Below, one piece after another: positions 6,372 to 60,131 of a stretch of DNA of 64,000 nucleotides. The notes beneath the pieces are model-generated. The model saw nothing but the letters and a program-made list of their open reading frames with translations, was not told the DNA's origin and did not search any database. Within the stretch, counting starts at the first letter, position 1. Each line of letters opens with the position of its first letter. This stretch comes from Eledone cirrhosa (Eukaryota), in the NCBI GenBank assembly GCA_964016885.1, contig CAXHJY010000860.1:586361-650360 (forward strand). The letters are read 5' to 3'. A program made the position numbers and the translations under genes.

Positions 6372-6408
6372 ATAACGTACGTTTCGGACTCTAGTCCTTC
6401 ATCAGAAT
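6372..6408 (-). ncRNA. Minimal type I hammerhead ribozyme (stem I weak)
   Basis: Reverse complement: CTGATGA-A-GGAC-TAGA-GTCC-GAAA-CGTACG-TT, with palindromic stem III. Confidence 0.6.
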
Positions 6409-7240
6409 AGATATACAGATACATAGAATGAGAGACATACAGACACTCGTTAGAACGATATATGTGTGTTTATATATATATATATAGATATATATTTATA
6501 TATATATATATATATATATATATATATATATATATAAAGTATATATACGTACATACATATATGTTTACAGCCGCACATACATATATGTTTACAGACGCAC
6601 AGTAGCATGTATATATATATACATACATGCACACATATATATATGTACGTATGGATTCACCGAACATTTATTATAATGCTCGGTGTGTTTGTAAACAAAC
6701 AGCCCGAATTAAGCCGTACAGTGTTCGGCAACCATCGTCGCCCTTTTGTTCAACACTGACAAAGGAACGATGTACTAGTTTCAAGCTTATTAGCTATCGT
6801 CAGCATCGTATACCTTTCTGTCAGATGATTGAACGTCTGAAAGTATATACTTTCATTATGCATATTAACGGCTGAGCAGCCTAATTTGCATATCGAGTGA
6901 GTTAGTCGGCCGGGGTACCGAAAACGATAAACGGAAAGATGAAACGAAATTTCATTTCTCACTCTTAGTACGGCTGATACCTAAATATAAGTATGTACAC
7001 ATACATACATATATGTATACAGACGTACAGTAGTATGTATATATATACATACATGTACACACATATATATGTATATGTACGTATGGGTTTACCGAACATT
7101 TATTATAATGTTCGGTTTGTTCGTAAACAAACAGCCCGAATTACGCCGTCCAGTGTTCGGCAACCATCGTTGCCTTTTTGTTCAACACTGACACGATGTG
7201 CTAGTTATATATATATATATATATATATATATATATATAT

Positions 7241-7433
7241 AACGAAGGAAATGCGGTAAGGGACCAGGTGGACCATAACGCACCAAAGTACTCAATACTT
7301 AGGGTAGTAGAGTGGGTAATAGGAAAGAGTAGGACGGCTGAGCTCAAGCCGTTTCGACGGCTAATTCTGGACTAGTCCAGAATTAGCCGTCGAAACGGCT
7401 TGAGCTCAGCCGTCGGGGTCCTACTCTTTCCTA
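7241..7433. mobile_element. Fold-back short element in (TA)n (family P; other copies 19930-20123, 20151-20357, 30696-30751, 46353-46543, 54951-55168, 58301-58510)
   Basis: Shared sequence GACGGCTGAGCTCAAGCCGTTTCGACGGCTAATTCTGGAC and its inverted copy, flanked by (TA)n. Confidence 0.85.
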
Positions 7434-7802
7434 TATATATATATATATATATATATATATATATATATATATATATATATATATATATATATATCAGGAA
7501 AGAAGAGTGACACGGTTTGTTATACAAAATAGGTTTTTAATCTCATTGCTGACAATTAAAAACCTTTGTTGTAAAGCAAACCGTGTCACTCTTTTTTCCT
7601 GATTTATTATTACTCCAAGTGTTTACAACATAGGAATTACAGCGTACTCGCAGCATCACTATGGAAACGCCTTGTTGAGTCAAACCAAGCCAAGCGTTGA
7701 TATCATCCACTACCTGGAATACCATAACTGGACTACACCTAAGTGGACTGCATATAACTATTATTTGTTACCCCGTATATATATATATATATATATATAT
7801 AT

Positions 7803-8588
7803 ATTAAGATAAGCAGAACAAGTAAAATTCAATCAATTTTTCAAAATACATTAAAATACATTAAAAAATATAATATAATATAAATATTTACCTCTTCTAG
7901 TGGCCCTTACTGATCAGTTTCGCTTTGTAAAACCTCATAAATCTGATGTATTTTGAAAAATTGATTGAATTTTACTTGTTCTGCTTATCTTAATATTAAA
8001 GTTCTGGTGTATCAAATTAACACCATTGAACAACCTTGAATCATAGACAACCTATGTATTTCTAGGGGTACCTAGTATCCCTGGACATATTAACTTCTAC
8101 CTTTTTCTCCGTCCGTTGAGAACAAATCTGTTGCTCTACTTGGCTGCTATTTTTTTTAGTAGTAATTGTAGACAGCAAGTCTTTGATTTTCCCGCTTTTA
8201 CTTCGGTCCAGTTTACATACGGGTCACTTTTACGACCTTTCAGACCTTTATTAGCTGGCAGGAGGTTGTATATTTTGTCGTTCCTGGGACGTTTAGCCCT
8301 AGGAAGGGAAAATGCTTCTCTGATGAGCTTCGGTTTTCCATCATAAATCCATCGGATTTATGAGGTTTTACAAAGCGAAACTGATCAGTAAGGGCCACTA
8401 GAAGAGGTAAATATTTATATTATATTTTTTAATGTATTTTGAAAAATTGATTGAATTTTACTTGTTCTGCTTATCTTAATATTAAAGTTCTGGTGTATCA
8501 AATTAACACCATTGAACAACCTTGAATCATAGACAACCTATGTATTTCTAGGGGTACCTAGTATCCCTGGACATATTAACTTCTACCT
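7803..8588 (+). mobile_element. Hammerhead-containing pLTR/retrozyme-like cassette: inverted 5' piece plus 486-bp-period direct repeat
   Basis: 7946-8101 is repeated at 8432-8588; 7803-7943 is the inverse of about 8355-8482; flanked by (TA)n. Confidence 0.85.
8316..8394 (+). ncRNA. Type I hammerhead ribozyme, extended stem II
   Basis: TTCT-CTGATGA-GCTT..TCATAAATCC atc GGATTTATGA..AAGC-GAAA-CTGATCAG-TA|AGGG. Confidence 0.85.
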
Positions 8589-58969: not shown

Positions 58970-59035
58970 TATTTTTCTATACATATTTCAAGGGCAACCA
59001 AGGCAAATTATGGTGTGCTTTCATCAGATAAAATA
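58970..59035 (-). ncRNA. Type I hammerhead ribozyme (family A)
   Basis: Reverse complement: TATTTTAT-CTGATGA-AAGCACACCA..TGGTTGCCCTT-GAAA-TATGTA-TA|GAAAAATA. Confidence 0.75.
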
Positions 59036-59521
59036 CAGATTTGTTTTATAAATAAATATTGACCATAGCCGGAAAAAGACAACCTCAACGGTTGGAGCTT
59101 CCTGGATATTTACTCCACTAACGCGTCGAGTGCTTTATATCAGTTATAAATTTTTTAAAATTAAATATAACCACTGCACACACATATATATATATATATA
59201 TATATATATATATATATATATATATATATATATATATATATATTTAATAGTAATAATAATTCTTTGCTTAAAATTTAATCTGTTATTTTAATAAATATAT
59301 ATATATTTATATATATATATATTTATATATTTATATATATATATATTTATATATATATATTTTTATATATACATATGTTTATATATAAATTTTTAACTGT
59401 TGGTTAATCAATTATAAATATTGATTGCCAACTAAATTAGCTATAGTGATATGAAATATTCAGAAGCGAAAACCAATTCAAACTAAACTGCGAATGTGTT
59501 TTATTATTATTTCTGGTAATA

Positions 59522-59735
59522 CCACGGCCCTTTATGATCTGAGTTCAAATCCCGCCGAGGTTAACATTGCCTTTCATCCTTACAGGGGTCGATAAAATAA
59601 AGTACCAGTAATACACTGGAGTAATTGCTGGCCTTGTGCATAAATTAGAAACAATTATTACAGGGTTGATAAAATAAAGTACCAGTAATACACTGGTGTA
59701 ATTGCTGGCCTTGTGCCAAAAGTAGAAACAATTAT
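59522..59735 (+). mobile_element. 5'-truncated tRNA-SINE with duplicated 3' unit
   Basis: GAGTTCAAATCCCGCCGAGG B-box region followed by two ~60-bp units. Confidence 0.82.
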
Positions 59736-60065
59736 TTTTACTGGTAATATAACAATATGACCTTCCCCAAATATAACAAATATACATATATATATATATA
59801 TATATAAATATATATGTATATATATATATACATATATATTTATATATATATATATAAATATATATGTATATATATATATATATACATATATGATTATATA
59901 TATATACATACATATGTATATATATAAATATATATGTATATATATATATATATATATATATATATATATATATATATATATATATAAATATAAATCAACT
60001 TTTCAATTGCAAGTCGATGTTGAAAGGTATGTCGAATCTATTTATTTATAAGACTGTCTATATTG

Positions 60066-60131
60066 TATTTTGTCTGAAGAAGGCATAACATATTGTTAAT
60101 ATGATATCCCTGAAATATATATAATGAAATA
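60066..60131 (+). ncRNA. Type I hammerhead ribozyme (family A)
   Basis: TATTTTGT-CTGAAGA-AGGcATAACATATT..AATATGATATcCCT-GAAA-TATATA-TA|ATGAAATA. Confidence 0.85.

Follow-up and report, generated by a model that had tools for sequence, protein, structure and literature searches.

Hammerhead ribozyme islands in (TA)n of Eledone cirrhosa as probable 3′ ends of Penelope-like elements, with a possible two-hairpin end signal

A 64,000-nucleotide stretch of Eledone cirrhosa contig CAXHJY010000860.1 (positions 586,361–650,360; below, the window) contains many short islands lying between TA tracts and carrying hammerhead-like motifs. What are these islands, and how were they inserted? The original prediction was of short cassettes of roughly ten ribozyme families, mobilised by proteins of Penelope-like elements (PLEs) such as the one at 13–15 kb. 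We consider it highly probable that the islands are type I hammerheads at the 3′ ends of PLEs inserted in (TA)n, mostly 5′-truncated Hydra-type copies with a few tandem retrozymes, and that each insertion arose from the element's own enzyme nicking (TA)n and starting reverse transcription upstream of either of two hairpins. The features along the window, with families labelled F1 to F8, were as follows.

6162–6470 (−): F6 cassette, minimal hammerhead (core 6405, stem III ACGT) with a damaged stem I
6622–7205 (−): F7 non-coding tandem retrozyme, ~1.4 units of 420–430 bp; hammerhead 6767–6809, stem III ACTAGT
7805–8587 (+): F3 retrozyme (485-bp unit); inverted partial copy 7805–7953, hammerhead 8316–8394 (ACTGATCAGT), hairpin 1 at 8487, hairpin 2 at 8106
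12921–15054 (+): 5′-truncated Hydra-type PLE; inverted 3′ end 12975–13181, RT piece 13308–14096, GIY-YIG piece 14331–14804, spliced 3′ UTR, U4A hammerhead cores 14988+ and 13041−
16735–17567 (+): F4; inverted endonuclease piece, sense endonuclease C-terminus, short UTR, hammerhead core 17440 (ACAATTGT, weak stem II), hairpin 1 at 17508
24157–24324 (−): F2 cassette, hammerhead 24206–24261, short end
24567–24853 (−): F1 Hydra 3′ end, hammerhead 24606–24670, short end
30414–30672 (−): F1 Hydra 3′ end, hammerhead 30547–30612, long end, hairpin 1 from 30498
30778–31010 (+): F3b retrozyme piece (~465-bp unit), hammerhead 30859–30936, short end
32968–33232 (+): F1 Hydra 3′ end, hammerhead 33033–33098, long end, hairpin 1 at 33148
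33843–34385 (+): F5b Hydra 3′ end, hammerhead core 34303, predicted cleavage after 34334
39633–39841 (+): F6 minimal hammerhead 39633–39668 (ACGT) and 3′ flank
39858–40124 (+): F1 Hydra 3′ end; inverted long tail 39861–39937, hammerhead 40023–40081, short end
40148–40385 (−): cassette, hammerhead 40197–40274 (ATATATAT)
40443–40703: two back-to-back cassettes, F2 hammerhead 40488–40543 (−) and a core-cut copy at 40641 (+) without stem I
40993–41578: two cassettes, hammerhead 41261–41348 (−; ACCATGGT) and damaged core 41415 (+; ACAATTGT)
41593–42296 (+): partial tandem with direct repeat 41593–41758/42135–42295; hammerhead core 42052, 8-bp stem III
42523–42729 (+): F4 relative, damaged hammerhead core 42658
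43066–43510 (right boundary approximate): F5a Hydra inverted pair, 43155− with short end and 43326+ through hairpin 1 at 43422
43519–43680 (+; boundaries approximate): hammerhead core 43529, then a Hydra-type hairpin at 43627; ORF link not found
44133–44525: F1b inverted pair, hammerheads 44181–44247 (−, short end) and 44320–44386 (+, long end, hairpin 1 at 44439)
44545–44824 (−): F1 Hydra 3′ end; inverted long tail 44726–44821, hammerhead 44585–44649, short end
44852–45280 (−): F8 Neptune-type 3′ end (by motif), hammerhead 45013–45057
45456–45922 (−): cassette, core 45660, 116-nt stem II, stem III ACGATCGT, predicted cleavage after 45526; inverted partial copy at 45704
58930–59183 (−): F1 Hydra 3′ end, hammerhead core 59027, short end, inverted tail piece 59125–59155
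59987–60272 (+): F1 Hydra 3′ end, hammerhead 60066–60131, long end, hairpin 1 at 60180

The motif CTGANGA occurred 32 times in the window, with GAAA no more than 70 nt away in 27 cases. A strict type I descriptor (stem I of at least 4 bp, stems II and III of at least 2 bp each) was passed by 17 of these cores, against a mean of 0.02–0.045 and a maximum of 1 in dinucleotide shuffles (700 shuffles across four window sizes), no fold in the reversed window sequence, and 0–1 matches for each of nine decoy cores. A relaxed descriptor was passed by 21 cores (shuffle mean 0.05, maximum 1), the two together gave 23 folds, and raising the stem II limit to 130 nt added the core at 45660 on the minus strand, which has a 10-bp stem I. 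In the final tally 24 cores folded as intact type I hammerheads, five were damaged as judged by eye (6405, 17440, 40641, 41415 and 42658), and three (32276, 44039 and 51503) were rejected as hammerheads. With about none in shuffles, the window motifs are confirmed as type I hammerhead folds, far above chance, as had been claimed. Two further folds with a CAGAAGA (U4A) core, 13041− and 14988+, had been overlooked. Three stems with an open stem I, CUGANGA and GAAA cores, A15.1–U16.1 and H17 were all found, the U4A family deviating at position 4.

The expected covariation within families was seen in stem II of F1, with double-sided change in six of eight pairs; within F1 neither stem I nor stem III showed any. 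The sequence of stem III varied between families while its self-complementarity was kept, and all six palindromes named in the original prediction were found after GAA, but several stem IIIs were looped and non-palindromic (42052, 43529, 45052 and the U4A pair). The families numbered ~15 instead of ten. The Rfam search gave no match at the gathering threshold, and the 150 of 542 matches listed by E-value, in which TA-repeat microRNAs dominated, included no hammerhead. For most copies the catalytic fold was recovered neither by minimum-energy folding nor in self-duplexes, and these models were given no weight for or against dimers.

The copies ended at two discrete 3′ positions, ~90–110 nt apart, the end distances being bimodal. 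As many as 46% of random window positions lie within 250 nt of a TA tract, so that nearness to TA alone is weak evidence in this window; what counts is the sharpness of the end modes. In nine of nine families tested, two of them retrozymes, modal ends lay 4–11 nt upstream of a hairpin, some modes being drawn from few copies (one for the long end of F3b, one or two per position for F1_GCGCA). In an alignment of 17 hairpins, chosen for fit to a pattern set after five had been viewed, all 68 outer-stem cells were paired, every one Watson–Crick and none G–U, and seven had changed on both sides, two of the four pairs being variable; none of 500 shuffles scored as high. The pattern GCTCC-N-TTGAGC-N-ATG gave 6,014 matches against 275 for the control, and at 14 of 27 loci the sequence next to it encoded a Hydra N-terminus downstream. 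The sequence following 39637, 42052 and 45052 showed no hairpin. Among 50 inverted (divergent) pairs from five families, 44 had one short and one long end, three had like ends and three were indeterminate; 11 pairs from U4A, F8, F7 and F3, not all of which fit this rule, were kept out of the count. Many 3′ ends were situated at an internal TA.

The hairpin pair thus described likely marks the sites at which copying starts. The element's own enzyme would nick the (TA)n target and initiate reverse transcription just upstream of hairpin 1, giving the short end, or of hairpin 2, giving the long end ~90–110 nt further on. The (TA)n target is self-complementary, and a protein dimer would prime each of its strands, one from hairpin 1 and the other from hairpin 2; early stops of reverse transcription would leave islands of 170–300 bp. 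According to PMC11167929, the purified PAc protein of Anolis Poseidon cuts both strands of AT-rich DNA and is a predicted dimer, the tail is defined by two internal stem-loop sites from which it begins reverse transcription, and its RNA is inserted in vitro without ribozyme cleavage. It is possible, though we think it fairly unlikely, that the hairpins act instead at the DNA level, marking the places at which a longer copying intermediate is resolved by the endonuclease. The purely Watson–Crick outer stems and the many ends at an internal TA would suit such a role, resolution by the endonuclease has been put forward as the origin of the PLE tail (PMC8557442, section 6), and the tail of Drosophila Penelope was required for endonuclease recognition (cited in PMC11167929); in the sole reconstituted PLE, however, the tail ends correspond to two start sites of reverse transcription on RNA.

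The link between hammerheads and coding sequence was direct for 12 of the 29 canonical-core copies, close sister copies of which lay in sense, 3′ of their own RT/GIY-YIG coding sequence. These islands are therefore truncated ends of coding elements, of at least four lineages, and not clients of the 13–15 kb element as originally proposed. Own RT or endonuclease sequence was found upstream in F1, F4, F5 and F8, and for F2 in a sister subfamily, the F2 copies of the window being linked to an ORF solely through that sister, and the RT lineages behind the window hammerheads were mutually 40–59% identical. Hammerhead–ORF–hammerhead tandems at four loci had periods of 3,676 (L057), 4,097 (L300), 4,603 (L164) and 5,668 bp (L169), to which nested inserts may add length. 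Open frames of 713 aa at L065 and L066 comprised, by motifs, an RT followed by a C-terminal GIY-YIG-type endonuclease in a single ORF. The intact 713-aa ORF carried RWR (for the RWK-type motif), DKT, CxCX5C and YRDD, in agreement with the published account of Hydra; the CxCX5C linker read CNCRNRVDC in L065 and CNCRNKSNC in L051, DKT was also present in L160 and L169, and the endonuclease, as read by eye from translations, was without CCHH and had CxxC (CDLC) and CxH (CKH) near its end. Insertion in (TA)n and a sense hammerhead near the 3′ end, as in the Hydra clade, were likewise found, and the tandem periods exceeded its tendency to be <3 kb, which is no strict criterion. The ORFs had 834 homologues, 38–56% identical among those listed and many with PF26215 or PF28514; a Pfam search with seven ORF pieces gave nothing meaningful. 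A GT-AG intron was precisely absent at seven of 19 junctions, and the spliced copies show an RNA step in the history of the elements. The L243 translation of F8, read by eye, had a CX2-5CxxC linker and a CCHH endonuclease, pointing to a Neptune-type PLE.

A direct ORF link was not found for the other 17 canonical-core copies, eight of which had no family assignment. Upstream homology of F6 extended no more than ~320 nt among 30 loci, eight longer stretches held no PLE ORF, and one walking search gave three matches without an ORF. Apparent ORF links of F1b (L053), the F2 subfamily of the window (L225) and F8 in L217 were discarded as mere neighbours across TA tracts. The hammerhead of the 13–15 kb element itself has the non-canonical U4A core.

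Non-coding tandem retrozymes were shown for three window families only (hammerheads at 6803, 8320 and 30863). F7, F3 and F3b are head-to-tail low-GC repeats (36–37% GC; longest ATG frames 34 and 79 aa) whose units each hold a single type I hammerhead and recur with periods of 420–430, 485 and ~465 bp, respectively. In two contig runs the head-to-tail junction was the sole thing visible. The F3-type retrozymes keep both end hairpins and so would borrow the Hydra enzyme in trans. These arrays of 420–485 bp, the short non-coding nature of most copies, and the ORF link not found for F1b, F6 and six others would all accord with SINE-like non-autonomous cassettes, making up every island and dependent for movement on the proteins of a few coding elements, that at 13–15 kb among them. 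We find this improbable, as F1, F4, F5, F8 and the F2 sister subfamily run into their own RT or endonuclease, the 5′ boundaries are variable and truncation-like, and the family at 13–15 kb bears a different hammerhead.

The 3′ ends lay 25–200 nt beyond the predicted ribozyme cut, so the ribozyme does not set them. Its likely substrates are tandem transcripts, on which it would act weakly, for the most part in dimers paired through the palindromic stem III, to release or circularise the unit RNA. Such dimers might also tether two RNAs and so produce inverted two-ended insertions; self-complementary stem IIIs do recur in many unrelated families, and inverted pairs are common. We give this idea as little credence as the cassettes, as the U4A family, with its looped, non-palindromic stem III, still inserts inverted, and Naiad PLEs have inverted copies yet no canonical hammerheads (PMC8557442). 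With regard to the two hairpins as start sites, we rate as about an even chance the broader proposal that Hydra PLEs carry a portable ~100-nt two-hairpin cis-signal 3′ of the hammerhead, from which reverse transcription would start on both (TA)n strands, and which would explain the tail, the inverted insertions and the recruitment of retrozymes, and would have filled this genome with ~200,000 hammerheads, including a 20,000-copy family that spread with a U4A core.

The combination of a Hydra PLE, a hammerhead and (TA)n is already published, one such element being from octopus, and the proposed tie of type I hammerheads in (TA)n to PLEs and retrozymes was supported. In the portion of PMC8557442 covered, the Hydra clade, including Hydra-1_Obim of Octopus bimaculoides, has the same single ORF of RT and C-terminal GIY-YIG with DKT and CxCX5C, the same sense 3′ hammerhead and (TA)n insertion, and the same 5′ truncation with an inverted copy. 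The elements described here differ in comprising at least four lineages in one genome, in tandem periods of 3.7–5.7 kb (published, "generally <3 kb") and in a tail of ~90–100 nt (published, 30–40 bp); twin end hairpins and a U4A family are absent from that portion of the description, and the hammerhead sequence listed for Hydra-1_oBim was matched, by eye, by no window hammerhead. Minimal PLE hammerheads (PMC4209133) are also type I, with palindromic stem III and predicted dimer action, and occur mostly as single motifs in truncated PLEs or as divergent pairs 100–700 bp apart; they number ~2,000–9,000 per genome, compared with the ~200,000 estimated here, where several families have a long stem II (30–116 nt) or a full stem III. 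A PLE origin has been proposed for non-LTR retrozymes (PMC7229834; bioRxiv 10.64898/2026.07.22.740005), which are likewise non-coding and low-GC and carry a single type I hammerhead in each head-to-tail unit, whereas the units here are longer (420–485 against ~220–390 bp as described) and F3 and F3b lie in (TA)n with Hydra-like two ends and hairpins. Poseidon PAc shares two internal tail-defining starts downstream of a hammerhead and an AT-rich target; there a single AC-rich stem-loop within the ORF holds both starts, whereas here the ends lie 5′ of two separate covarying UTR hairpins, ~90–110 nt apart. F8, like Neptune PLEs, follows an endonuclease with a CX4CxxC linker and YIGET, and its end is without a Hydra-type hairpin; its placement is by motif only.

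The hammerheads themselves belong to a described system, and it is the end signal that would matter, bearing on how PLEs choose a start point, on inverted-pair insertion and on the borrowing of enzymes by retrozymes. The hairpins are common to coding elements with 40–59% identical RTs and to non-coding retrozymes, which makes exact mutations testable. The twin-end arrangement with its hairpins was not found in the papers searched (PMC11167929 and bioRxiv supplements outside the scope), nor was a report of such scale or of a U4A-fixed family (Lunse et al. outside the scope).

Genome-wide, seven patterns gave 107,417 exact matches, compared with one in reversed-pattern controls, and the hammerhead folds of the genome are estimated at ~200,000. 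Chance matches in AT-rich low-complexity DNA, which might be suspected from the ~10 bare CTGANGA in shuffles and the empty Rfam gathering result, are refuted by these counts and by the 17 full folds against a shuffle mean of 0.04. Axolotl retrozyme hammerheads number 126,247, so the absolute count here is not unprecedented. Each family supplies natural copies in the tens of thousands, missed by the Rfam gathering score, on which selection for ribozyme activity could be tested, and the U4A-fixed family, with 20,026 copies, is a natural candidate of predicted low activity for such tests. The density of folds in the window was four times the genome average; the predicted density of one per 2.5 kb held locally, but a like-for-like genome sample gave about one per 15 kb.

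The window contained 32 CTGANGA cores, 27 of them with GAAA no more than 70 nt away. Under a strict type I descriptor (stem I ≥4 bp, II ≥2, III ≥2), 17 of the 32 passed, and the shuffled-sequence control called for by the original prediction gave far fewer (means 0.02–0.045, maximum 1), so that the predicted hammerhead folds were borne out. The reversed window sequence yielded 0 and nine decoy cores 0–1 each. A relaxed descriptor passed 21 cores (union of both 23), and allowing a longer stem II gained 45660 (minus strand), giving 24 intact folds; the remaining CTGANGA cores were 5 damaged copies and 3 non-hammerheads. 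Among one-mismatch cores only the two with CAGAAGA passed as folds, and these flanked the element at 13–15 kb. The Rfam search that had also been proposed matched 0 hammerheads in the window at gathering score.

In the largest family (26 copies) 93.5% of cells were paired, and double-sided changes were seen in 6 of 8 stem II pairs but were absent from stems I and III; the anticipated covariation was thus detected in stem II. Between families, stem III took many different self-complementary sequences. The hammerhead islands are real, occur well above chance and are part of an already described system. A decayed copy lay in the island at 22222–22621 (minus strand), where a core lacking A9 was followed by GAAACAATTGT at 22454; the 3′ part of this island was related to 41415.

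The assembly comprises 2,995,841,428 bases of an animal genome in 1,796 contigs, and the window lies at the terminus of contig C887. The animal is probably an octopod cephalopod, judging by octopus-type SINE sequence at 484–711 and 32350–32655. Tracts of (TA)5 or longer made up 18% of the window versus 5.3% of a genome sample. Exact patterns of seven hammerhead families were counted genome-wide on both strands, with the reversed pattern as control.

Exact genome matches of hammerhead family patterns (control in brackets)
F1: 55,903 (1)
F8: 16,631 (0)
F7: 11,741 (0)
F2: 11,680 (0)
F5: 6,017 (0)
F6: 4,913 (0)
F3: 532 (0), pattern of the GAAA half only

Together these gave 107,417 matches, among which one site may be counted twice as the patterns have variable gaps. 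A sample of 60 10-kb stretches at even spacing, with 39 on the four largest contigs and none on small ones, gave 41 folds by the strict descriptor (0–1 in controls) and 57 by the relaxed one (3–5 in controls). The estimated density was 67 per Mb, or ~200,000 hammerheads per genome (bootstrap 112,000–306,000). Since the window held 266 per Mb, against 88 in eight neighbouring stretches and 67 in the genome sample, it is a hot spot, and the earlier figure of about one fold per 2.5 kb is local to it.

Pairs of F1 hammerheads kilobases apart, divergent or tandem, bracketed reverse transcriptase (RT) and endonuclease coding sequence in stretches from elsewhere in the genome (L051–L057). Such coding sequence also lay between hammerhead pairs of both F5 subfamilies (L160, L164, L169) and of a sister subfamily of F2 (L298, L300), and in the window itself core 17440 came after an endonuclease C-terminus. 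The ORFs contained RWR, DKT, YRDD and CxCX5C, motifs of the type described as marks of the Hydra clade (PMC8557442), and formed at least four groups with 40–59% mutual identity. The F8 hammerhead sat behind a Neptune-type endonuclease; a short island at 23129–23310 (plus strand) resembled this region. Through close sisters, 12 of 29 canonical-core copies were linked to coding sequence. Copies placed in no group were two of F6, 40266, 40641, 41343, 41415, 42052 and 45660. F1b and 43529 had a Hydra-type hairpin, yet a search for their ORF found none; past 39637, 42052 and 45052 the hairpin was sought and was absent.

F3, F3b and F7 formed head-to-tail non-coding arrays, with units of 485, about 465 and 420–430 bp, respectively. 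The 485-bp F3 units at L305:1418–4243 were 99.8–100% identical, which suggests recent amplification or homogenisation. A further retrozyme family at L309:1375–9567, judged by eye to be related to F7, was arranged divergently in units of 468 bp, 7 on one strand and 12 on the other.

The element at 13–15 kb was a truncated, broken copy; sister family copies elsewhere had intact frames of 702–713 aa. Its hammerhead core, CAGAAGA (U4A), had 20,026 exact matches, compared with 771 for C, G or T at the same place (T in 83 of 100 among the matches listed). A natural U4C variant in a viroid reportedly has lowered yet sufficient activity (PMC3088659); a literature search for U4A hammerheads gave no relevant paper among the matches listed. 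As stem III of this family has 5 bp and a 7-nt loop, its hammerhead could fold alone. The 3′ UTR carried a GT-AG intron with two donors (window 14804–15054 and 12975–13181; L064:4376–5400). It had been precisely removed from 7 of 19 junctions, those of the two window copies among them, which is direct evidence for an RNA step. Spliced and unspliced copies side by side are a known trait of Penelope-like elements (PLEs).

The spacing between the predicted cut and the TA junction was bimodal: about 45–60 and 130–160 nt in F1, F1b, F2, F5 and one further family, 20–30 and 110–120 nt in the U4A family, and 80–90 and 190 nt in F3. Divergent pairs of five families (n = 50, omitting 11 pairs of U4A, F8, F7 and F3) joined a short to a long end in 44 cases and like ends in 3, with 3 ambiguous. 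Islands with a single hammerhead frequently started with an inverted long tail (40028, 44641, 59027).

With natural tandem copies as references, 9 of 9 families, retrozymes F3 and F3b included, had their modal short and long ends 4–11 nt upstream from a hairpin, against a positional null of about 0.1 per end for a pattern set after part of the data had been seen. The hairpin had the form N-Y-T-C...two unpaired bases-G-A-R-N, with outer stems GCTC/GAGC, ACTC/GAGT, GTTC/GAAC and TCTC/GAGA; UTRs outside the hairpins were nearly unalignable. Hairpin 2, just past the long end, precedes the ORF start: a pattern of this hairpin followed by a start codon had 6,014 genome matches (control 275); at 27 loci checked, a Hydra N-terminus came next in 14 and a hammerhead-like motif lay upstream in 8.

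The sequence data show directly that copying passes through RNA, that copies join (TA)n, that there are two discrete ends with a hairpin near each, and that unlike ends are paired. The element's own enzyme would nick both (TA)n strands, cDNA would begin beside hairpin 1 (just past the short end) on one strand and beside hairpin 2 on the other, and early stopping of synthesis would leave short islands. This scheme is modelled on the reconstituted Poseidon element, where both strands of AT-rich DNA were cut, two internal start sites defined the tail, the protein was predicted to dimerise and ribozyme cleavage was not needed (PMC11167929). Because copies run 25–200 nt beyond the predicted cut, the template would have been uncut or rejoined there. 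The ribozyme likely works on tandem transcripts, dimerising in families with a palindromic stem III (PMC4209133; PMC7229834). Our guess is that single-copy cleavage may be damped in two ways, by a palindromic stem III or by the U4A core.

PLEs of the Hydra clade that have canonical hammerheads and target (TA)n are already published, Hydra-1_Obim of Octopus bimaculoides among them (PMC8557442), as are minimal palindromic PLE hammerheads (PMC4209133) and retrozymes (PMC7229834; bioRxiv 10.64898/2026.07.22.740005). For giant squid, 235 hammerhead matches are listed (PMC6962438); the main text of a 2026 Octopus vulgaris repeat annotation lacks the words "hammerhead" and "ribozyme" (PMC13282606). 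A literature search, with most subscription papers outside its reach, found no census of cephalopod hammerheads and no account of paired end hairpins or of a PLE family with U4A. New here are the genomic scale, the family with a U4A core and, most of all, an end signal of two hairpins that the elements share with retrozymes.

Hammerhead families that the window lacks turned up in L250, L252, L259, L266, L290 and L307: an abundant one whose stem III has 4 bp and a loop of 8 nt, and another, with stem III ATGCGCAT, that headed a Hydra ORF in L327. Helitron-like Rep/helicase coding pieces (L172:2665–6675) lay upstream of an F6 copy. Window 20026–20249 held a long near-perfect inverted repeat about the TA tract 20124–20151 and gave the top microRNA match of Rfam, a false one. 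A 45-bp satellite, apparently SINE-derived, occupied 34817–36527 (about 38 copies, 94% matches), and SINE-like tandem units of 76–77 bp, presumably octopus SINE, were present at 484–711, 32350–32655 and about 59545–59790.
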